Below, in pieces: positions 24,006 through 34,974 of a stretch of 64,000 bases of DNA. The stretch's first letter is position 1, and every line of letters starts with the position of its first letter. The stretch is from assembly GCA_965198115.1 (NCBI GenBank), contig OZ240241.1:3424001-3488000 (forward strand), given 5' to 3'. The translations under genes were made by a program, and so were the position numbers. The notes beneath the pieces were generated by a model, which saw only the letters and a program-made list of their open reading frames with translations, searched no databases and had not been told where the DNA came from. Origin of the DNA: Candidatus Latescibacterota bacterium. GTDB lineage: Bacteria > Latescibacterota > UBA2968.

Positions 24006-25379
24006 GAGTTCAGGTCAATAGGTGTGTAAAAGAAATCAGGCGGCCATCTTCCCGGCTTCGACCTGCGGTTCGGTTGAGTGTTTCTGATCGTAGACTTGTT
24101 GTAGCAAGTGTGGCGCGGTGAGTTTCCTGAATCGGCTCTCTGCGACCTTGAGCGTACGCCAGATGAGAGTCGTGGCGTTCCTGACTTTCTTGAATCGCCT
24201 GGCGGCGTTTGTGCGAAGCCGAACGGAAGCAAAGGGGCTCTCGACGACGTTCGTGGTTCTCAGGTGTTTCCAGTGTTCCTTCGGGAAGTCGTAGAACGTG
24301 ACCATCCGATCCCAGTCTCTTTCGAGCGTCTCCACGGCGGCAGGGAACTGTGAGCGATACCGTGCGGCAAAGCGTTTCCGGAGCTTCTCGGCCTCCTTTT
24401 TCGTGCCGGCATAGGGGATCTGGACGAGCAGTGCGCGGGCTTCAGCCTGTGCACGCTTGGCGACCTTGTCGAGCACGTTGAGGATCTTGTGGTTCCAGCA
24501 CCGTTGTTGCCGGCTCTCTGGCCAGACCTGATCAACGGCCGCCCAGATGCCCATATTCCCGTCCGCGGCGATCAGGACAGGATGTTCGAGCCCGCGATCC
24601 CGGAGATCCCGGAGCACCGTGAGCCAGGATTCTGTAGACTCTCGATAACCGGGTTCTATCGCCAGGATCTCCTTGCTGCCGTCGCTCATCGCGCCGATCA
24701 CGACCAGCAGACACGCCTTCTCGCGCTCGAGCCCGGCTTTGACGTAGATGCCATCAGCCCAGGCGTAGACCAGTTCGCGATTATCCAGACGCCTTTCTTT
24801 CCAGTCCTGGAAGTCGACCTCCCACTTCCCTCGAAGACGAGCGATCGAGGTCGGCGAAAGCGGCGCGCCATCACCGAGCAGCGCACGCAAAGACAACTCG
24901 AAGTCGCCCTGGGAGAGACCGTGGAGATAAAGGTCGGGAAGCAGATCTCCAATGGCCCTGGTTCTCCGGGCGAACAGGGGGAGGATGCGGCTTTCAAACC
25001 GCTCTTCCAGACCACGAACCCGGGGACGCCGGACCTTGATCGTTCCGCAGCTCGTCGAGAGACGCCGGGGCTTGCCGTAGCCGTTCCTGTAGCCCCTGGA
25101 GCTATCGACCTCGGCTCGGCGCTCATACCACGACCGGCCCAAGAACGCGGTCGCCTCCTCCTCCAGAATGGACTGGAACCGGCCCTGGATCTCTTCACGG
25201 ATCCAATCGTCAACCGTCTCCCACGTCGGCATGGACTTCAATGGGGCTCTATGCGTATGTTCCTTCACGGCGATCCTCCTTCCCAACCGGGCCTCTCACC
25301 CGGTTTTGTGTGAATCAACTATCTCACGGGAAGGGTAGGGTCGCCCTTTCTCTTTTTCCACACCTTTTGATTATAGCTC
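24006..25379 (-). mobile_element. Complete IS256-family insertion sequence (1374 bp)
   Basis: Imperfect TIRs GAGTTCAGGTCAATAGGTGTGTAAAA / GAGCTATAATCAAAAGGTGTGGAAAA; 8-bp target duplication AAAAGGGC at 23998-24005 and 25380-25387. Confidence 0.92.
24036..25268 (-). CDS. IS256 family DDE transposase
   Basis: YRNGY, WADG, ESTESW, ADG, QRCWNHK, RTTNVVES. Confidence 0.95.
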   Translation of the reverse strand: MKEHTHRAPLKSMPTWETVDDWIREEIQGRFQSILEEEATAFLGRSWYERRAEVDSSRGYRNGYGKPRRLSTSCGTIKVRRPRVRGLEERFESRILPLFARRTRAIGDLLPDLYLHGLSQGDFELSLRALLGDGAPLSPTSIARLRGKWEVDFQDWKERRLDNRELVYAWADGIYVKAGLEREKACLLVVIGAMSDGSKEILAIEPGYRESTESWLTVLRDLRDRGLEHPVLIAADGNMGIWAAVDQVWPESRQQRCWNHKILNVLDKVAKRAQAEARALLVQIPYAGTKKEAEKLRKRFAARYRSQFPAAVETLERDWDRMVTFYDFPKEHWKHLRTTNVVESPFASVRLRTNAARRFKKVRNATTLIWRTLKVAESRFRKLTAPHLLQQVYDQKHSTEPQVEAGKMAA

Positions 25380-25431: not shown

Positions 25432-26628
25432 TCAGTCGATCACATCCGCGATACTTCCGCAAAGATATTCGACATTCTCTTCTGTGACACCGGCGACGTT
25501 GATCCGACCGCCCGTCTTGACGACGTAAATCGCGTGCTTCTCACGCAGGGCGTCTACCTGGGCGGGCGACAGCCCTGAATAAGAAAACATCCCCTTCTGC
25601 CGGGCGATGTAAGAAAAGTCTCGCCTCACACCCGTCCGTTCGAGCGTGTCGACCAGCAACTTGCGGACACCGTTGATTCGATCGCGCATGGCCGTCACCT
25701 CGCTCTCCCATTCCTGCCGAAGCTCGGGGTCGTTCAGCACAGCCGTCACGATCGACGATCCGTGTGCGGGAGGATTGGAATAGTTCGTACGAATGGTGAT
25801 CAGCAGGTGGCTCAGCGCCCGTGCCGCGTCGATTGGAGATTGGGTCACGAGCGTGAGGGCGCCGATTCGCTCACGGTAGAGCCCGAAATTTTTACTGAAC
25901 GAACTGGCGATGAACATCTCGTCGACGTTCGCCACGAGCGTCCTCAGTCCAAGGCCGTCCTGTTCGAAACCTTCCCCCAAACCCTGATAAGCGAAGTCCA
26001 GCAAAGGGATCAGACCACGCGAACGAACGATGTCCGCAACCGTCTCCCACTGAGCCGCCGACGGGTCCATACCCGTAGGGTTGTGACAACAACCGTGCAG
26101 AAGGACGACGTCCTCCACCGGGATCTCGTTCAATGCACCGGCAAAGGTATCGAAGTCGAGCGCGTTGGCGTCGACATCGTAGTAGGGATAGGTTTTCGTC
26201 GCGAGGTGGGCGGCGTCGAACACTTTTGGGTGATTGGCCCACGTCGGATCGCTCAGCCAGAGTGTGGCGTCCGGATAGAGCTTCTGAATGAAGTCACCGG
26301 CAACCCGAAGCGCCCCCGTACCCCCCGGTGTCTGGACCGTACACACCCTTTCGTCAGAAATGACAGGATGTCCTTCGCCGAAGAGAAGGGCCTGGACGGC
26401 GGCCCCGTAGACCGGATCGCCCGAAATCGGGAGGTAGCTTTTGGTCTCTTCGGCCGCCAGAGCTCGTGTTTCGGACTTCTTGACCGATTGGAAAACCGGC
26501 GTCTGTCCGTTGGCATCTTTGTAGACACCGACGGTCAGGTTGATCTTGTTGGGATTGGGATCGTCGTTGAAAGCCGCCGTCAGACCCAGGATCGGATCAG
26601 GCGGCGCCTGTTCGAGTTGGTCAAACAT
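25432..26628 (-). CDS. Aspartate/aromatic amino acid aminotransferase (AspC/TyrB type)
   Basis: PPDPILGL, QTPGGTGAL, HGCCHNPTG, DFAYQG, SFSKNFGLY. Confidence 0.94.
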   Translation of the reverse strand: MFDQLEQAPPDPILGLTAAFNDDPNPNKINLTVGVYKDANGQTPVFQSVKKSETRALAAEETKSYLPISGDPVYGAAVQALLFGEGHPVISDERVCTVQTPGGTGALRVAGDFIQKLYPDATLWLSDPTWANHPKVFDAAHLATKTYPYYDVDANALDFDTFAGALNEIPVEDVVLLHGCCHNPTGMDPSAAQWETVADIVRSRGLIPLLDFAYQGLGEGFEQDGLGLRTLVANVDEMFIASSFSKNFGLYRERIGALTLVTQSPIDAARALSHLLITIRTNYSNPPAHGSSIVTAVLNDPELRQEWESEVTAMRDRINGVRKLLVDTLERTGVRRDFSYIARQKGMFSYSGLSPAQVDALREKHAIYVVKTGGRINVAGVTEENVEYLCGSIADVID

Positions 26629-26718
26629 CCTCTGCATCCTCTGGCAAAGGGTTCCCTGCGTGCGCCGAAAGATACTGAGCCCGCAACAACCGGACAAGCT
26701 CCGGGACCCAGAACCTTC

Positions 26719-29176
26719 TCAGGCGATACACCCTTCGAGCAGCCTGATGACTAACCGTTTGTGCTCGACCCGCATCAGGTTGTCCAACAGTTCGAGGGCG
26801 TTCGACTGGCGATCCTTCTCGGCACTGATCAATCCCACGTAGGCACGCGTCACGTCTTCGCGGGGGTAGATCAGTCCCAATAGCCCGACCACAATCCGCA
26901 GTCTGTGGTCCTTCCCTTCGGCCGTGGTCGGAACACCGGCGTCCGTTTCCTTTCGAATCGCTCGGGTCACCTTCTCCTCGTCAATCTCCAGATTTTCGAC
27001 GCGGGCGTTGATCTCTCCGAGCGCCTCGAGGATCGAAAGACCCAACTCATCCTGGTGCTTTTCCAGAATATCGAGCAGCGTGTCGGCCGCGGCCTGAGTA
27101 CCGATGGCTGCGTAGCACTCAGAAACGGCGCGCCGAATCGCGATCGATTCTTGTGGGTCATCCACATAGTCACGGAGGGCGTGGACGACCCGATCCCCGT
27201 AGCCACGAATCGCGCGCTGAGCATAAATCACGAGGCCCTCGTCGGCCAGGTGCGGAACGACCAGCGGCAGAAAAACGCGACGGCCCGTACGCGACGTGCC
27301 CTCGAGCGCGGATCGAACGACAACGGGGGAATTGTGGCGTAGCAGTTGCATCATCAGATCGTCGTATTCGGGATCGTCAATGGTCCCCAGAATCAGTGCC
27401 ACTTCGGCGGCTGCATCCTCGTCGCCGTAGTCGGGTCCGCACGCCTCCCCGAGCGAATCACGCACCTTCTGCTTTTCCATCGATTCGTTCAGGGCCAGCG
27501 ACCCGATTGCTGCAATACGAACGCGCGAATCCTCATCCTCCAGCAGACTGTTGAGTTTGGCCCCCAGGTATGGGCGCCCGTAGAGACACAGGTAGCGCAC
27601 GGCGATCACCCGTACATCGGCGTTCCCCGAATCGAGCATCGCCTCGGCTTCTTTGACGCACTGGGCCTGAGATTCCTGCCCGAGGACACTCAGGGCTTCG
27701 GCCCTGACCGTTTCTGAAGGATGAGATCGGGCCGCTCGTTCCAGGCCCTCGAGAACCGAAGACTTGTCGTGCATCAAGTCTAGCATCGCCAACGCGCTCA
27801 GTGCCGCGGTTTCATCGGGGTCGTCGAGCTGTTCTGAAAGCAGATCGACCGTGCCGGTGTCCAACACCTCCGCCGCCCGATCCTGAGACTCGCCCGAAAC
27901 ATCAGCGAAGAAGCTTCGCACCGTACTCAGGTATTCCCGTCGGATCACGAAAACAGCAATGAACCAACCTCCAATAATGACCAGCGAGATGATGCTGAGC
28001 ATGCGTATCTGCAGACCCATCACAGCGGTGAAGAACAGGATCATCAATCCGCCCAGACCGTCGAACAATCGAGTACCGAACATATCGATCAAGGGCCGTA
28101 CACGGGCGCGCACTTTCGACGGAAGCGGGAGATACAGGACCTCGAACGTGGCTTCCTGAAGCGAATAGCGAATGCCGCCCTCGGCGAATTTGGAGGCGCT
28201 CGCCACGAGCAACGTGGGATAGATGAGGAATCCGACAGCACCCGTTGACAGAGCGAGGGGCAGCAACACGAGCGAGAAACCGACGCCGAATCGCAGGAGC
28301 AGGTAGCGCGTCCCGATCAGCTGGATGAACAAGGCAATCACGTTCTGGGCGGCAAAGAACTTCGCGAAGAATGACGTCTTTTCGTTCGCAGACGCGAAAG
28401 CTTCGCTCGTCACCGTCTGGAACTGAACATCGAGGATAGCCGACGCGATCATGCTGGCACCGAGGATGGCACCGATCAGCTTGATGTGACGATGCTCCTT
28501 GAGCAGGTCGAGTGCGGACCCTTCGACCGGCTCTTCCGGCCTTTCCGCGCGGCGCTTCGCATCGGCTCTCTCCAGCTTGATCACAAGGGGCAGCATCAGA
28601 ATCATCGCAGCCACCGATACGTAGAGCAGGTTCTCGGTACCGACTCGATCGACCACACGGAACACGATCGTCGGCCCCAGGATGCCACCGATCGTCCCGC
28701 CGGCTCCGACGACGCCGAACAGACGCTTGGCCTCGCGCGGCGTGAACTGGTTTCCGGCCACCAGCCTGAATTGCGTCAGTAGAATCACCGAAAAGAGCTG
28801 TACGAAGACGTAGAACGGCAACGTCACCCAGTCCCCGGCTGTCTCGAACAGCTGGCGGAACAGGAGGAGGAAAGGCCATGAGCGTGAGGGTCGTCGTCAG
28901 GACGGGGGTTCGACTGTCGTAGAGATCTCCTACGTAATCGACCGCCCAGACGAGGAGCCCCGTGACGACCGCCGTAAGCACCATCGCGACGGGGAGCCAG
29001 TCCGGCCCAAGACGGTCGAGCAGCAGTGAGTTTCGCGTCGGCTTCAGCGTCGTGAACGCCGTGAGCGCGAGCATGTAGTAGACCGAGAGCAAGAGGGCCA
29101 CTCGGTTCTCGGGACGGGACAGATCGAACACACTCGCAAGACGGGAAGCACCCTGTTGTTCTCCTGCCAAAAGCAT
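26719..29176 (-). pseudogene. Npt1/TLC-like (ATP/ADP translocase family) transporter fused to HEAT repeats; 1-nt frameshift at about 28872
   Basis: LKPTRNSLLL, FTPREAKRLFG..GGILG, RYSLQEATFEVLYLPLP, IDMFGTR; C-terminal HEAT repeats; deleting one T from ATG GCC TTT CCT joins two ORFs into 818 aa. Confidence 0.78.
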
Positions 29177-29203
29177 TCCTCCTGTGACCTACAAACGTGA
29201 AAG

Positions 29204-29546
29204 TTAGGATGCTTTCACTGGCAAGCGCACCGTCGATCGACTCGGCCGTCTGGAAGACGGCAGCCAGACGTGTCACACGCATGATGCTCTGCACCTTTGG
29301 GGTCATTCCCGACAAGCGAAACTGGCCTTCCGCCTTCTGTACCGACATCAAACTCGCGGACAGAACTCCGAGCATCGAACTCCCGAACCACTGAACCTCA
29401 CTCAGGTCCACGACGACGTTGGCCACGCCCTCGGCGACCAGAGTCTTGACCTCGTCGAGGAGGGGCGCCACTTCGGGTCCGCTCATCATGCTACCCGATA
29501 ACGCCAGCACCGCGGCATCCTCGTGCATCTCTCGTCGAATATCCAC
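29204..29546 (-). CDS. STAS-domain anti-sigma factor antagonist (stop apparently out of frame by 1 nt)
   Basis: VVVDLSEVQWFGSSMLGVL, VTRLAAVF, SIDGAL; the domain ends at about 110 aa but the ORF reads on to 28824. Confidence 0.75.
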
Positions 29547-29561
29547 GCCAGCCCCTTTCGG

Positions 29562-31790
29562 TTAGTTTTGCGTGCCTGCCAGCCACCGGCGCCAGGCATC
29601 GGCATCATCGCCGAGTCGTTCGTCCGTCGTCGTCCGGAGCGCCCGAAGCGCGAACATCCGGACCCCCCGATCTTTGTCTTCGAGCGCCTGAATCAGTCCC
29701 TCGACCCCGGCACGCGCCTTCAGCCGGCCGAGGCCGATGGCAGCTGCCCGCCGGATGGGTACCGCCTCGTGGCGCAACACCGAGACGAGCGCCGGTGCGA
29801 TGGACGTGTCGCCGGACAGACCAAGAGCTTCGACCGCCTCTACAAGGAGCTTCCCGTCGAGCTCAGGCAACACACCGGCGATCGATTCCGCAGCCCCGGC
29901 AAACAGCTTTCGCTCGATGGCTCCTCGAATCGCTGCTCCGCGAACCTCCGCATTTTCGTCCAGGATTGCCCCAAAGAGGGCAACGTTCGAACCGTCGTGA
30001 GAAACGAGAGCCCGAACGACCGCCAGCCTGACACTCGGGTCGGGATCCGCAACCGCCTTGGCCAGGGCCGAAACGGACGACGGGTCCGGCGAAAGCTGAA
30101 GTCCCTTGGCCGCAAGTCGCCGGACCTCGACATCCTCGTCGGACAGACGTGCGCGAAGACCGCGCGAAGATCCGGCGATCCCCATTCCCCAGACCGCCCA
30201 CCGTCTGACCGCGGGCTCCGCATCTGCCAGGAGATCGTGAAGCACCTCCGCACTCTCGCTCGTGCCCGCCCGCGCCACGGCTTGGGCAACCGCTGCTCGC
30301 GTCGCCCCATCGGCATCGCCCGTATACGGGCGCACGTGCGAAACAACGCGAGGCAACCCGGTGCGGCCGAGCTCCTCGATCGCCATCTTGCGCTCCGCCG
30401 TCGATCCCTCGAGATGGCCGGCCAGCGTCTCGACGTAGGTGTCGTCGTCGTGAAGCGTCAGCGCATCGATCGAACGACCCTCGACATCGTAGACATCCAG
30501 GTCCAGCCGTCCACCCCGGATGGTGATCGTGCAGTAGTGCGGCACACTCTCGGACACCGCAGTCCAACTGCTTCGTCCAACCTTATAAAGTGGAGCCCCT
30601 CCTCCGCCTGACACGACCTGTACCACCCCCCGATCGACGCGCTTGTCGCCGCGTAGCGGCCACGTTCTTTCGTAACAATGCTCGTGCCCCGTCAGAACTA
30701 CATCCACGTCGAGTCGCTCGCACAGAGGAACGAGATTCCGCCGGATCGTGAGATTGCTCTTGTGGTAACCGCTGCTGTAGGCCGGGTGGTGCACGACGAC
30801 GAACTTCCATCGGGCCCGACTCGACGCCAGATCCGTCTCGAGCCACACGCGTTGCTCGGTCCCGGCCTCGAGCTCGCCCGATTCGTCGTTTGTGTCGAGC
30901 ACCGCGAAGTGCGCGGGGCCGTAGTCGAACGCATACCACGCCTCGGGCCGCTTCGTAGAACCGTTCGGGGACACTTCGAAGTAGCTGTAGTAAAGCGCGC
31001 TGTCCTTTTCGTGGTTTCCGATGGCCGGATAGATCGGAGCCCGTAAACCGAGCGGGCGAGTGGGCTCGAAATACATGGGCCCCCACTCGGCTTCGACGCG
31101 TCCATCGTTCACAAAGTCTCCCGAATGAATCACGAAATCGAAGGAATGGGTCAGAATCCGCTCGACCACTCGAGTGTGCGTCTTCGGATTCGAACGGCTG
31201 TCCCCATAGAGCGCGAACGTCACTGTCGAATCAGCCGACGCGTTCGTCCTGAATCGTCCCTGAGCGCTGCTGACGCCGTGTGCCGTCACCCGGTAATGGT
31301 AGGGCGTGCCGGGAGTCAGGCCTTCGAACCGAACGCGCCCCTCTCCCCGCTGTTCAACGGCATCTTGACCGTCGGCCTCCAGAAACACGGACGCCTCCGC
31401 CGACGGCGCGACGCCCCACAGGATCGACGTCTCCGTTTCTGTGACGTGCTGCGCATACGGCCCCCTATCGAACCAGACCCCCGCAATGAAGGACGCTTCC
31501 GCTTCGCTCCCCGCCGATGCGACACGGTAGTGATACGTGCGTCCCGGCCTCAGACCGTCCAGAACGACCCGGTGCTCGGTCACGAGGTTCTGGTCGGCCA
31601 CCTCCGCGCCAAAGCTCGGCGTGATCCCGTACGCCACTCGTGAGTCACCGGGTTTTTCCGTCGCCCACGAAATGGCCGCCGCATCCCGTCCGACCGTCTC
31701 TACGTGGGGACCTCGAACAATCCGTACGTCTTCGGCGCACGCTGCAAGAGCAACGAAGCAGAAGGCCGTGCGGATCAGGTGTCTCGTCAT
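29562..31790 (-). CDS. Lipoprotein metallophosphoesterase (purple acid phosphatase-like) with two FN3-like domains and C-terminal HEAT repeats
   Basis: Lipobox LAAC; LRPGRTYHYRV and LTPGTPYHYRV; GDSR, GDFV, GNHE, HHP, GHEHCYER; repeated DxDxxVRxxA units. Confidence 0.85.
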   Translation of the reverse strand: MTRHLIRTAFCFVALAACAEDVRIVRGPHVETVGRDAAAISWATEKPGDSRVAYGITPSFGAEVADQNLVTEHRVVLDGLRPGRTYHYRVASAGSEAEASFIAGVWFDRGPYAQHVTETETSILWGVAPSAEASVFLEADGQDAVEQRGEGRVRFEGLTPGTPYHYRVTAHGVSSAQGRFRTNASADSTVTFALYGDSRSNPKTHTRVVERILTHSFDFVIHSGDFVNDGRVEAEWGPMYFEPTRPLGLRAPIYPAIGNHEKDSALYYSYFEVSPNGSTKRPEAWYAFDYGPAHFAVLDTNDESGELEAGTEQRVWLETDLASSRARWKFVVVHHPAYSSGYHKSNLTIRRNLVPLCERLDVDVVLTGHEHCYERTWPLRGDKRVDRGVVQVVSGGGGAPLYKVGRSSWTAVSESVPHYCTITIRGGRLDLDVYDVEGRSIDALTLHDDDTYVETLAGHLEGSTAERKMAIEELGRTGLPRVVSHVRPYTGDADGATRAAVAQAVARAGTSESAEVLHDLLADAEPAVRRWAVWGMGIAGSSRGLRARLSDEDVEVRRLAAKGLQLSPDPSSVSALAKAVADPDPSVRLAVVRALVSHDGSNVALFGAILDENAEVRGAAIRGAIERKLFAGAAESIAGVLPELDGKLLVEAVEALGLSGDTSIAPALVSVLRHEAVPIRRAAAIGLGRLKARAGVEGLIQALEDKDRGVRMFALRALRTTTDERLGDDADAWRRWLAGTQN

Positions 31791-31804
31791 TCGCACCCTC
31801 GACT

Positions 31805-32614
31805 CTACCCAGAGCTCATGAGTGGAAGCGGGAACATCACTTCGTCCTCGCCGTAAGTCGCGATACGCTCATCGACCATTTTCAAAAGGTTCTGCACACG
31901 GGCCCAGAGCGCGTCGGTTTGATAGCTCTTCAGATACTTCCGCAAGGCCCTGTGGAGCTTCTTCTTTTCCAGCGTCCGAAGCGCTGCGATGGGCTCGCGG
32001 GGGAACCGATACAGAGGACGGATGGGCTTCTCGAACGTGTTGAAACACATGGAGTTGTCAATCACGACCGGGGACCAATCCGTTGCGATCATAATGTTGT
32101 GCGTACCGCGATCGATGTTGTAGATGAGATAGTCGAACATCCACACGGTGTGCAGCCAGTCTCGGAGGACCGAGCCATCGGGGGGAGTCTGGCCGTGCCC
32201 GTAGCGGGGCAAGACGTCTTCGACCCATTCCCGCAGCGATCCCCTCTTGCCGTTGACCTTTCTCTCCACGATGGCAGGCAGAATGTTGAGCTCGAGCAGC
32301 TTGTCCAGTTCGTAGGCCGCGATCTCCGCCTTGTAACTGTCGATGTGCTGGTCTGCGGCTTCCGCCCCGTGCCGAACATCGGCTTCCATAAAGGTGTCGA
32401 TGTTCTTGTAGATCGCGTTCAGCTCAACACCGTCCCTCTCGAGATACACCTTCAACGGTTTGGAGATTCCCGCGCCCACTTCCTTCGTGCGAACAATCTT
32501 CGCCTTCTTCAGAAAGGTCTCTTTGTCCGCTCGGGTCATCTCGCTCGCCGAGGCATCCGTCCAGCAGATGCCTGCAACGAAACAAACTATCGTAGTCAGG
32601 ACTCGACATCTCAC
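31805..32614 (-). CDS. Secreted atypical kinase (Fam20C/PI3-4K-like fold)
   Basis: Signal peptide ending ASA; AIYK, EIAAYELDKLL, GSLREW, FDYLIYNIDRGTHN, IDNSMCF. Confidence 0.72.
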   Translation of the reverse strand: MRCRVLTTIVCFVAGICWTDASASEMTRADKETFLKKAKIVRTKEVGAGISKPLKVYLERDGVELNAIYKNIDTFMEADVRHGAEAADQHIDSYKAEIAAYELDKLLELNILPAIVERKVNGKRGSLREWVEDVLPRYGHGQTPPDGSVLRDWLHTVWMFDYLIYNIDRGTHNIMIATDWSPVVIDNSMCFNTFEKPIRPLYRFPREPIAALRTLEKKKLHRALRKYLKSYQTDALWARVQNLLKMVDERIATYGEDEVMFPLPLMSSG

Positions 32615-33675
32615 GGCTGCCCCCCCGCTGAGAACGCCAAATGCTCATAAAAGTCACCGAACAGATCGATCACATAGGTTGCTTTTCCGGTGTATCGCAT
32701 TTTGAGCAATTGGGAAAAATCGAACAGCACAGAATCCTCGTAAGTCCCGGACCTCAACCCCTCACCCAACGCGACCAGCGCCTCGTCGGACTGGCGGTCG
32801 AACGCGATCGCTTCCTCTTCGCGACCGAGCGAAGCCAGAACCATCGCGTGATCGTTCAGCAGCATCATTCTCGTGCGCTCATCGCCAGCGGCCGTAGCCT
32901 TCTCGAGCGCCCTGGCCAGGGTCGTGAGGGCATCGTCGTGCTTGCCCGACTTCCATTCGGCAACACCGACATTGCGCTGGGCCAGTAGGGCACCGTCGGC
33001 ATCCCCCGCTTCCTCGTAGATGCGCCGGGCTCGTTCGAACAGCCCGGTGGCAGAACCGTGTCCCCCGCTCGACCCTTCTATCCGGCCCAGCCGAGACACG
33101 CACTGCGCAATGGCCAGACTGTCGCCTCAACCCTCCACGGCGCTGATCAGACCCAGATACTTGATGTATCCGTCCTGCACACGATTGCCCTGGCCCGATT
33201 GTCCCAGCACCTCGGCGTGGCAGGGCTCGACTTCGCTCGGTTCGAGCAGCTCCAGAGCCGTCCCCATTTCGGCGATGGCCTTTTCCGGCTCCATGTTCCC
33301 GAACTGGCGCGAGTCGAGAAAAGCCGTGATCGCCCTGGCCCGCGCGAGTTTCCCGACCAGTACGCCGTTCTTCGTCCCACCGAGAAACTCACGGGCCTTC
33401 TCTTGGAAGGAAGCCGCCTCCTCGAGCCTACCGTAGATGGCGTACACACCTCCCAAGTTGGCGGCTGCGATAGCGGCCCGGGCGGGGTCGCCCGACTTTT
33501 CATAGACTGCCCAGGCAGAGTCAGCGAGGGTCCTGGCCGCCTCCCACGATCGGGCGTGAAAGGCCTGTGCGGTTGCGGCGTTGAGATCGTTCTCGGCCCT
33601 TCCACGAGACGGGACCCCGAGCAGAAGAGCGACCCCCAGCGCACCGCACAGCGACGTGCTCAGTTGATTTTTCAA
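32611..33675 (-). pseudogene. Secreted TPR-like protein with an in-frame TGA at 33127-33129
   Basis: RBS GAGGAGG; signal-like N-terminus; TPR-like helices (NLGGVYAIYGRLEEA, NVGVAEWKSGKHDDA); the two ORFs share one frame across AVEG*GDSLA. Confidence 0.7.
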
Positions 33676-33713
33676 CGAGAACCTCCTCGGGGTGGGAACG
33701 TGGCATCCACTAA

Positions 33714-34974
33714 GTGCATGGTTTCATAAACATTATTACGTATGTCTTGAACATTATTTGTAGCTTATGTTCTCCTTCAAAAGGAGGAGAACAATGCCAA
33801 GACGTTCGCCTTATGTGGTGCTACTGTCTGAGAAGGAACGGGTCGACCTCGAGCGAATGGCTGGACAATATACGTTACCGTATTATCAAGTGATCCGATC
33901 GAAAATCGTGCTTCTCGCCGCCGAGGGATTATCCAACAAGATTATCGCCCAACGGTTGGATGTCCCGCGTCCGATCGTAAGCAAATGGCGTAAGCGCTTT
34001 TTCGAAGAGCGTCTTTCGGGACTCGAAGATAGATCTCGTCCCGGGCGCCCGCCCGGTTTTCCCCCCTCAGGTGGTCGTTCAGATCAAGGCGCTGGCGTGT
34101 GAACTACCGAGCGAGAGCGGGATACCGCTCTCGCGGTTCAGCTGTTCCGAGATTGCCGCCGAGGCAGTGCAAAGGGGCTTCGTTGCCAAGATCAGCGGCG
34201 CCACTGTCTGGCGCTGGTTGAACGAGGACGCGATTCGTCCTTGGTATCATCGCTCCTGGATTTTCCCACGGGACCCGGACTTCCAAACCAAAGCAGGTAG
34301 AGTCCTTGATCTGTATCACCGCCAATGGCAAGGAAAGCCTTTAGGGCCGAGGGAATATGTACTTTCTGCCGACGAAAAGACCAGTATTCAAGCACGAGCT
34401 CGCAAGCACGTTACCCTACCGCCAGCCTCGAACAGAGCGGCACGCGTTGAACACGAATACGAGCGGAAAGGAGCCCTGGCCTATCTGGCTGCTCTCGACG
34501 TGCACAATGGTCGAATCTTCGGTCTCTGTGAGTCTTCTTCGGGTATCGAGCCCTTCAACCGGCTCCTGAGCCTGATCATGAGCCGGAAACCCTATTGCTC
34601 GGCAAAGAAAGTCTACCTCATCGTGGATAATGGCTCCTCGCACCGAGGGCAAACATGCATCGACCGTATCCAGGGGAAGTGGCCAAACATCCACCCCGTT
34701 CACCTTCCGATCCACGCAAGCTGGCTCAATCAGATCGAGATCTACTTCTCGATCCTCAAACGCAAGGCTCTGACACCTATCGAATTTACATCGCTCGAAG
34801 AGCTTGAGGCAAGAATCCTCGGTTTTCAGGAACGCTACGGACGTATCGCCACACCCTTCAAATGGAAGTTCACACGAACAGATCTCGCGGAGATGATCGA
34901 CAAACTCAGGTTCTACGATACGCCCTTGGCAAAGTCTGCTTAGAATACGTCACCGTATTTGAGAACAGGAGTAC
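33714..34974 (+). mobile_element. IS630-family insertion sequence (about 1260 bp)
   Basis: Flanked by a duplicated TAA (33711-13, 34975-77); degenerate TIRs; visibly lower GC than the flanks. Confidence 0.85.
33794..34943 (+). CDS. IS630 transposase, orfA/orfB joined by a -1 frameshift
   Basis: HTH orfA (SKWRKRF..RPGRP); TTTTCCCCCC at 34057-34066; orfB with DEKT, DNGSSH and WLNQIE. Confidence 0.9.

Follow-up and report, generated by a model that had tools for sequence, protein, structure and literature searches.

A Fam20-like kinase, predicted to be exported, in a conserved kinase-phosphatase-carrier module of a Candidatus Latescibacterota bacterium

The kinase operon

The window analysed here is a stretch of 64,000 nucleotides from a Candidatus Latescibacterota bacterium (GenBank assembly GCA_965198115.1, contig OZ240241.1, positions 3,424,001 to 3,488,000), numbered from its first letter. 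Five genes follow each other on its minus strand and encode a TPR protein, a kinase, a phosphatase lipoprotein, a STAS protein and an NTT-HEAT fusion, with gaps of -4, 8, 15 and 40 nt, respectively. The kinase gene (31805..32614) starts with GTG and is intact, as the sequence-only reading had claimed, translating into 269 aa without internal stops; its GC3 is 0.76, versus 0.56 for the plus-strand ORF that overlaps it. The preceding TPR gene (32611..33675), whose product has a signal-like N-terminus, overlaps the kinase start with its stop by 4 nt and carries an in-frame TGA at 33127-33129, while its counterparts in relatives are single ORFs of 338-372 aa. Eight nucleotides after the kinase gene lies an intact ORF of 744 aa (29562..31796), predicted from its LAAC lipobox to be anchored as a lipoprotein and composed of FN3/PAP-N, purple-acid-phosphatase-like metallophosphoesterase and HEAT-repeat domains. 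This phosphatase is closest to a diphosphonucleotide phosphatase and is of the purple-acid type rather than a dedicated protein phosphatase. The STAS (anti-anti-sigma-like) gene (28824..29546, with the domain at 29217-29546) runs on to 240 aa, versus 120-127 aa in two relatives, and the fusion of an NTT (TLC, ATP/ADP-translocase family) to HEAT repeats (26719..29176) is frameshifted between about 28869 and 28925.

The operon is flanked by mobile elements. Directly upstream, at about 90 nt, lies an IS630-like element (33767..34943, plus strand; the family label stems from its HTH and DDE_3 domains), of which the genome contains 70 near-full copies, and downstream lies a Mutator/IS256-type transposase gene (24036..25286, minus strand) with 139 near-full genome copies. 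A further minus-strand ORF (25432-26697), presumably aspartate-aminotransferase-like, starts 21 nt past the NTT-HEAT stop and was not seen at that place in relatives. Scanning for promoters and terminators yielded nothing informative above shuffled sequences, and the partner proteins of the kinase showed unremarkable counts of S-x-E, the motif that Fam20C, a dimerising kinase, phosphorylates in secreted proteins.

A short-read contig, possibly from the source sample and stemming from one study, corresponds to positions 26500-33738 and agrees with the window over 7,239 bases, with 0 differences and no gaps. The sequence of the kinase gene is therefore no assembly artefact. The same agreement rules out that the disruptions in the TPR and NTT genes are long-read errors, and both genes are really broken in this strain. 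Its kinase would need another NTT-HEAT gene of the genome or be idle, and two such genes with long open frames (905 and 1018 aa) were found. This raises the question of whether the kinase gene of this strain has lost its function as a remnant of an operon in decay, a reading that is compatible with any view of the family as a whole. The TPR nonsense codon and NTT frameshift recurring in the short-read contig, the IS close upstream and the many copies of both IS types speak for such decay, whereas the full-length kinase and phosphatase ORFs with complete catalytic residues and the two other NTT-HEAT genes speak against it; we regard it as a serious possibility, less probable than its opposite. 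Among IS-rich relatives (the window at 26719-33675, L092, L093 and the second module of this genome, L098), NTTs were found frameshifted, IS-interrupted or lost next to intact kinases.

The pairing of TPR and kinase genes recurs at loci L092-L095 and L139-L142. The operon-type phosphatase adjoins the kinase in L093 and L094 and follows about 4 kb on in L139 and L140, and an NTT lies near the pair in L092 (where it is split by an IS), L095, L139, L140 and L142, whereas the 20 kb of L093 contain none. Close relatives of the kinase are patchily distributed, occurring in 5 of 61 close-relative genomes including this one, and close orthologs of the phosphatase (E<1e-140) were present in all 4 genomes with a close kinase and in 1 other of the 61.

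The translated kinase displays the motif order announced by the sequence-only reading, namely AIYK (K70), EIAAYELDKLL (E97), GSL (125-127), FDYLIYNIDRGTHN (D168, N173) and IDNSMCF (D186), with a further acidic residue at D92. The spacing given there had to be corrected, however, since three residues rather than two separate DR from N, and likewise DN from F. A word-based search retrieved 161 homologs at E<=0.001; of the 120 listed, 117 were considered together with the query, which gave 117 aligned rows (alignment A1). In this alignment D161, N166, D168 and D186 are invariant across the 117 aligned sequences, N173 is kept in 116 of them, and the D92 position is Asp or Glu in all 117. The number of homologs and the invariance of these four residues indicate that the motifs are more than chance. 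The family is large: in a search of the full library, clustered at 50% identity, 1,109 clusters reached E<=1e-30. At E<=0.001 the number rose to 8,199, but the weaker of these matches will include other families. The nearest named relatives come from Candidatus Latescibacterota and then Acidobacteriota, and the Atlas matches are unnamed Acidobacteriota clusters.

In 46 of the 117 homologs, Gln and Asn jointly replace Lys and Glu at positions 70 and 97 while D92, D168 and D186 are kept; these sequences possibly form a pseudokinase or variant clade reminiscent of Fam20A. Two relatives additionally contain more distant kinases of the superfamily (L096:3626-4465 and L097:7859-8443, E about 1e-15 to the A1 profile), the former with a lipoprotein-like N-terminus and a PF00454 score above the cut-off.

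Fold and family assignment

The AlphaFold model of the kinase (pLDDT 90, pTM 0.87) bore out the kinase fold and the resemblance to Fam20C that had been claimed for it. Fam20 structures occupied ranks 1-8 in Foldseek, and in VIA the best match was hydra Fam20, a xylosylkinase (Z 19.4, rmsd 3.4, 238 aligned), with Z scores of 19.4, 18.7 and 17.7 for three Fam20 chains (Fam20C being at 18.7), followed by PI4KIIa (17.0), CtkA (14.6) and CotH (11.3); MavQ was also among the structural matches. Of the fold comparisons that had been suggested (Fam20C, CotH, HipA and PI4K), Fam20 thus came out best, PI4KII next, and CotH and HipA weaker. Searching PDB sequences with the A1 profile agreed with this order, as Fam20A, Fam20C and hydra Fam20 (Fam20B) came first (E 2.6e-11 to 7.4e-6) and PI4KII was weaker (E about 1e-3). 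Only the profile search works, for the single kinase sequence revealed nothing significant in the PDB (best E 0.27). Four-jointed/FAM198 appeared in neither the PDB sequence nor the fold hit lists.

Among curated families, the kinase falls below the cut-offs of both PF00454 (PI3_PI4_kinase; 25.7 bits versus a gathering cut-off of 27.1) and the NCBIfam SCO1664 (TIGR03843; 33.9 versus 172.4 bits), and both weak matches sit around the catalytic loop. PF00454 is nevertheless the commonest Pfam match of the family (75 of 117 members). The Pfam Fam20C family (PF06702) was not matched by the kinase itself at E<=0.1 and was matched by 18 of the 117 members at E<=0.01 (best 3.9e-4). In a library of viral structures, PI3K/PI4K-like domains of phages and giant viruses reached TM values of at most 0.56, weaker than Fam20. 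Matches of the model in BFVD included related kinase domains that form part of very large phage proteins with annotations such as ADP-ribosyltransferase, portal or head-morphogenesis protein.

For comparison of individual residues, the kinase was aligned to hydra Fam20 (5xom) and mapped on the numbering used in the available text of PMC5865150, with a deduced offset of 22. By this mapping, D92 corresponds to Asp152, which pairs with the catalytic Lys in hydra Fam20 according to that text, D168 to the catalytic Asp299, G170 to His301 and M189 to Lys321. The Lys (K70), the alphaC Glu (E97), the catalytic Asp (D168), the metal-binding Asp (D186) and the Fam20-type extra acid (D92) are all present. 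The N-lobe insertion domain of Fam20, in contrast, is missing from the kinase, and the A1 profile alignment breaks across it. The mature kinase contains a single Cys, so that the four disulfides of Fam20 are impossible; 106 of the 117 homologs have 0-2 Cys. The residues of the Fam20B Gal-Xyl pocket (His301 and Lys321) are replaced by G170 and M189, these positions being mostly N/R/G and R/M in the family, and 72 of 117 homologs have Arg at the Lys321 position, i.e. the Fam20C-type residue that blocks sugar. The kinase sequence also lacks the palmitoylated CCPCC membrane motif, described as a feature of type II PI4-kinase in the available text of PMC3974213. Since it has no insertion domain, disulfides or sugar pocket, and since Asn takes the place of the catalytic-loop Glu of Fam20, the kinase is Fam20-like and belongs to the Fam20 superfamily, but is no member of Fam20 itself.

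These features also bear on the nature of the substrate. If the exported kinase acted on glycans, lipids or small molecules, like Fam20B or PI4KII, it would modify an envelope polymer or lipid head group. Such a role would fit the top structural match being a xylosylkinase, the proximity of PI4KII (within 2.5 Z units), the frequency of PF00454 matches, and the view that the ancestral animal Fam20 was a glycan kinase (available texts of PMC7948968 and PMC5865150). We nevertheless judge such an activity quite unlikely, as both sugar-pocket residues are replaced, the Arg that blocks sugar predominates in the family, the cysteine-rich membrane anchor of PI4KII is absent, and no glycosyltransferase or lipid-synthesis gene recurs among the neighbours (by heuristic gene calls). 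Moreover, the usual partner of the kinase belongs to a protein-phosphatase family (see below), and the gene context leans towards protein. The substrate of the kinase is likely a protein; no substrate gene was identified.

Predicted export

The N-terminus of the kinase comprises MRCR (with 2 basic residues), a hydrophobic core and TDASA, just as had been read from the sequence. It was predicted to be a Sec signal peptide of residues 1-23 (32546..32614, minus strand) ending in an A-x-A site, based on sequence and a hydrophobicity heuristic. By the same heuristic (hydrophobicity plus A-x-A), 102 of the 117 homologs have a signal-like N-terminus, whereas three windows from the protein interior passed in 13, 2 and 0 of 117 cases; several of the failing homologs are truncated gene calls. 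The kinase is thus predicted to be exported to the periplasm via Sec. A cytoplasmic form starting from an internal ATG (M26) was set aside, as the hydrophobic N-terminus is retained among homologs and the GTG codon overlaps with the stop of the preceding gene.

Fusion proteins were in line with a location outside the cytoplasm. In 31 of 37 long homologs (717-2045 aa), a phosphatase is joined to the kinase, and almost all of these fusions begin with a signal-like N-terminus. Three others (P0271-P0273) consist of a Ser/Thr kinase, a transmembrane helix and a Fam20-like domain; the position of the latter beyond the transmembrane helix places it outside. These three proteins look receptor-like, with a predicted kinase domain on either side of the membrane (the Ser/Thr kinase in the cytoplasm and the Fam20-like domain outside). 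In the remaining three, the fusion partner is a penicillin amidase, an S9 peptidase or an LRR/FN3 protein (one case each); the amidase and peptidase fusions have a signal-like N-terminus.

Linkage to phosphatases and nucleotide carriers

Across 80 genome loci plus the window, many of them short, an NTT accompanied the kinase in 18 of 81 cases, an exported SLP-type phosphatase in 15, a Ser/Thr kinase in 16 and a STAS gene in 7. The corresponding numbers for 80 metagenome loci were 14 (NTT), 21 (SLP-type phosphatase), 13 (Ser/Thr kinase) and 1 (STAS). The closest solved relative of the usual phosphatase is a Shewanella protein-tyrosine phosphatase (E 1e-51). This usual type does not occur in the genome studied here, where the purple-acid type is used instead.

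At the level of whole genomes, the kinase was present in 38 of 151 Acidobacteriota genomes searched, one of which (the centre genome, G061) had been chosen for carrying it. All 38 contained an NTT, versus 11 of 50 kinase-negative genomes (taken in list order from 113 negatives). The usual phosphatase family was found in 37 of the 38 (36 at E<1e-60), and in 4 of the 50 negatives, all weakly (E>=1.5e-28). This contrast is inflated because the NTT profile (A2) and the phosphatase profile (A4) were seeded from kinase loci, with at least two of the sampled genomes supplying seeds, and because the genomes are related; the kinase-negative ones are also smaller. Distances pointed to physical linkage as well. 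In 13 of the 38 genomes, a kinase gene and an NTT are no more than 5 kb apart, where 0.78 would be expected from gene counts and genome size (108 of the 109 kinase rows and 110 of the 124 NTT rows entered, second fragments of split genes having been dropped). For the phosphatase, a distance of at most 2 kb to the kinase was found in 22 of the 38, where 0.16 would be expected (43 of 46 phosphatase rows used); this includes 12 kinase-phosphatase fusions, encoded by 10 genomes. For the majority of the kinase genes (88 of 108), no NTT was located within a distance of 10 kb. On a tree of 120 kinase domains, 20 loci of which had been chosen for having partners, adjacency to an NTT requires 17 changes, 14 of these being forced by supported branches, and is therefore not one inherited cluster.

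Genomes contain up to 11 kinase matches, mostly against one phosphatase. This surplus of kinases, together with the STAS, RsbW, FHA-SpoIIE and Ser/Thr kinase neighbours, fits a role in signalling. Tandem arrays of 3-5 kinase paralogs were seen at L099:7365-12878, L100, L046, L062 and L071. Most of them come with a single phosphatase gene and with one NTT or two, and several of these arrays adjoin STAS, RsbW-like and FHA-SpoIIE genes. Between kinase paralogs, on the opposite strand, also lies a gene for a lipoprotein-like SdiA-regulated/phytase-like protein (L046:6830-7681, L071:6856-7698, L080:6873-7769), a label based on a domain scan of the L046 copy. Of the uncharacterised neighbours, the one at L136:9650-10948 resembles M24 peptidases rather than a kinase, and the ORF at L105:11068-12189 matched nothing in Pfam or NCBIfam.

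The same genome contains a second module (L098, at G000:C1:6083525-6093668), consisting of an Omp85 barrel, a metallophosphoesterase, a protein referred to as P0122, an interrupted single-domain NTT and an NTT-HEAT. P0122 is a predicted lipoprotein of 555 aa with 1,086 homologs and no Pfam match. Its model (pLDDT 91) combines an FN3 domain with a kinase of the Fam20-like superfamily, the Z scores being 14.2 for CtkA, 12.9 for Fam20C and 12.4 for CotH. A PDB sequence search with the P0122 family found nothing, and profile-profile comparison with the first kinase family revealed no significant match (probability <1%), so that P0122 is identified as a kinase from fold searches of its predicted structure. 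When only rows from genomes or contigs carrying a P0122-type kinase were entered, 8 of 22 relatives and 6 of 22 Acidobacteriota genomes had such a kinase and an NTT no more than 5 kb apart. That a single carrier family accompanies kinases of two families and phosphatases of two classes argues for a functional link rather than a chance cluster.

A further possibility is that the kinase is a secreted effector acting on extracellular proteins of a host or competitor, in the manner of CtkA or the Legionella kinases, with neighbours that serve for immunity or are incidental. CtkA and MavQ do figure among the fold matches, the Omp85 barrel of the second system could move the P0122 kinase to the surface, and the distribution among close relatives is patchy. 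On the other hand, the family is common across Acidobacteriota, its members are covalently fused to their own phosphatase or to a membrane Ser/Thr kinase of the cell, and no secretion-system or toxin-cassette genes recur around the kinase loci. We therefore consider an effector role very improbable.

By sequence, the carriers of the kinase operons are clear NTT homologs: profile A2 matched the PDB entries 9j3n (E 4e-44) and 9j3j (E 1e-39), and PF03219 matches the carrier as well. According to the available text of PMC3306366, residues K155, E245 and K527 of AtNTT1 are needed for binding or transport. With AtNTT1 numbering transferred through a deduced offset, and duplicates included, K155 is found in 1 of 47 carrier rows, E245 in 0 of 49 and K527 in 20 of 45. 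The NTT copy in the window has Gln at E245 and Asp at K527, its sequence not covering the K155 position. The position of AtNTT1 E385, a residue that the available text of the paper just cited does not mention, is acidic in 35 of 46 carrier rows (duplicates included), and basic and acidic residues are conserved at pore positions other than the canonical four. As the NTT1 residues are largely replaced, ATP exchange by these carriers is a putative activity.

This leads to an alternative that retains an exported, active kinase but takes the NTT-HEAT(-cNMP) protein for a sensor or importer of nucleotides instead of an ATP exporter. In that case, the module uses, senses or salvages extracellular nucleotides and signals inwards via its STAS and SpoIIE partners. 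Apart from the replaced transport residues, this would agree with the resemblance of the local phosphatase to purple acid and diphosphonucleotide phosphatases, with nucleotide uptake by the characterised NTTs (available text of PMC5381601), and with other NTT-HEATs that adjoin cytoplasmic histidine kinases, response regulators and SpoIIE, no exported kinase being seen nearby. It is less easily reconciled with kinase operons whose NTT has a single domain and neither HEAT nor cNMP (L046, L062, L080), with the conserved charged pore positions, or with the NTT-HEAT that adjoins another signal-bearing ATP-binding enzyme (PPDK_N, L137). Furthermore, NTT1 is a counter-exchanger (available text of PMC3306366), and the direction of counter-exchange follows the gradient. 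On balance, we deem a sensor or importer unlikely.

The neighbours of NTTs outside kinase loci were varied. At 20 NTT loci chosen for having no adjacent kinase, they included secretins (3), histidine kinases, response regulators, SpoIIE, Omp85, a 5'-nucleotidase and PPDK_N (25 proteins scanned, 23 of them from 102 neighbours), and many NTT-HEAT genes neighbour other genes, a sulfatase included. NTT-HEATs therefore serve more than the kinase module. In three related genomes (L120, L122, L124), an NTT-HEAT and a small cNMP-binding-like gene are directly followed by a secretin of approximately 820 aa. At L137:5881-12064, in a genome without either kinase family, the NTT-HEAT operon contains the signal-bearing PPDK_N protein, which is possibly another exported ATP user.

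Discussion

The kinase resembles the Fam20 kinases in its motif order and in the extra acidic residue before the alphaC Glu, by prediction it would also share their signal peptide and work outside the cytosol, and Fam20 is the best match over the whole kinase domain for both sequence profile and structure. It differs in size (about 245 aa in its mature form, versus 351-418 aa for the solved Fam20 chains), in a catalytic loop that reads D-R-x-x-x-N instead of D-R-H-H-Y-E, in having neither the N-lobe insertion nor the four disulfides nor the Fam20B sugar pocket, and in being bacterial and encoded beside its own phosphatase and carrier. With type II PI4K, PF00454 and SCO1664 it shares the fold class (Z 17.0) and the weak matches round the catalytic loop, but it remains below both curated cut-offs, carries a predicted signal peptide and lacks the palmitoylated Cys motif. 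CtkA, HipA/HipT, MavQ and actin-fragmin kinase share the atypical kinase superfamily (Z 9-15), yet they act as effectors on a host, as toxins in the cytoplasm or as kinases of the cytosol, and the kinase locus holds no antitoxin or injection genes. CotH, the spore-coat kinase of Bacillus, is a much more distant fold match (Z 11.3) than Fam20, and the kinase has no CotH Pfam match; the available text of PMC12189002 describes CotH as a Fam20C-like bacterial atypical protein kinase and a structural spore-coat enzyme, and mentions no phosphatase or carrier partner.

In the literature, Fam20 is treated as animal-wide, no bacterial member being named in the available text of PMC7948968, and four Legionella families have been placed near Fam20 and CotH (available text of PMC9758233). 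The architecture of the operon's carrier is common to the NTT-HEAT(-cNBD) fusions of free-living bacteria surveyed by Major, Embley and Williams in 2017, who included Latescibacteria and Acidobacteria; as far as the available text of that survey goes (PMC5381601), the fusions are uncharacterised, their function is left unknown, and they are not linked to exported kinases or phosphatases. Neither the kinase family nor its link to a phosphatase and an NTT is described in the main texts searched, a set without supplements and most subscription papers, and the supplement of PMC5381601 may list some of the carriers. The available text of PMC12419801 likewise has nothing on such a module.

The locus encodes a real and intact Fam20-like kinase, predicted to be exported, as part of a conserved module with a phosphatase and a carrier. 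Because the periplasm is regarded as lacking a supply of ATP, a kinase exported by Sec needs explanation. The nucleotide carrier in its operon is a candidate ATP source, together with an exported phosphatase. We lean slightly towards a mechanism in which this kinase of the Fam20/PI4KII fold phosphorylates periplasmic proteins, the exported phosphatase reverses the reaction, and the NTT carrier supplies the ATP. The kinase would be exported by Sec and fold in the periplasm without disulfides, where it would phosphorylate periplasmic or envelope proteins with ATP that the NTT would exchange for periplasmic ADP. The exported phosphatase would reset the phosphorylated proteins, and the HEAT/cNMP, STAS, RsbW and FHA-SpoIIE partners might tie the cycle to cytoplasmic signalling, with the TPR protein as a putative adaptor or substrate. 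We infer kinase activity, a protein substrate, the outward exchange of ATP for ADP and the coupling to cytoplasmic signalling from fold, residues and gene context.

The present analysis contributes a version of the module with a purple-acid phosphatase and TPR protein, a second family of kinases that has these kinds of partners too, doubt on ATP transport at the level of residues, and the decay at strain level. A broader proposal, which we put forward tentatively and rate a little short of an even chance, is that Acidobacteriota and Latescibacterota-related bacteria might share a system of reversible periplasmic protein phosphorylation that draws on at least two exported kinase families of the Fam20 superfamily, two classes of exported phosphatase and ATP-exporting NTT-HEATs. 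If true, bacteria would have an equivalent of the Golgi kinases of animals, perhaps even the pool from which these descend, and the orphan NTT-HEAT fusions would gain a function. The mechanism favoured for the operon itself would, if confirmed, provide a role for the fusions left uncharacterised in the available text of PMC5381601, make the kinase a minimal, disulfide-free model of the Fam20 fold of 245 aa, and add an extra compartment to bacterial phospho-signalling.
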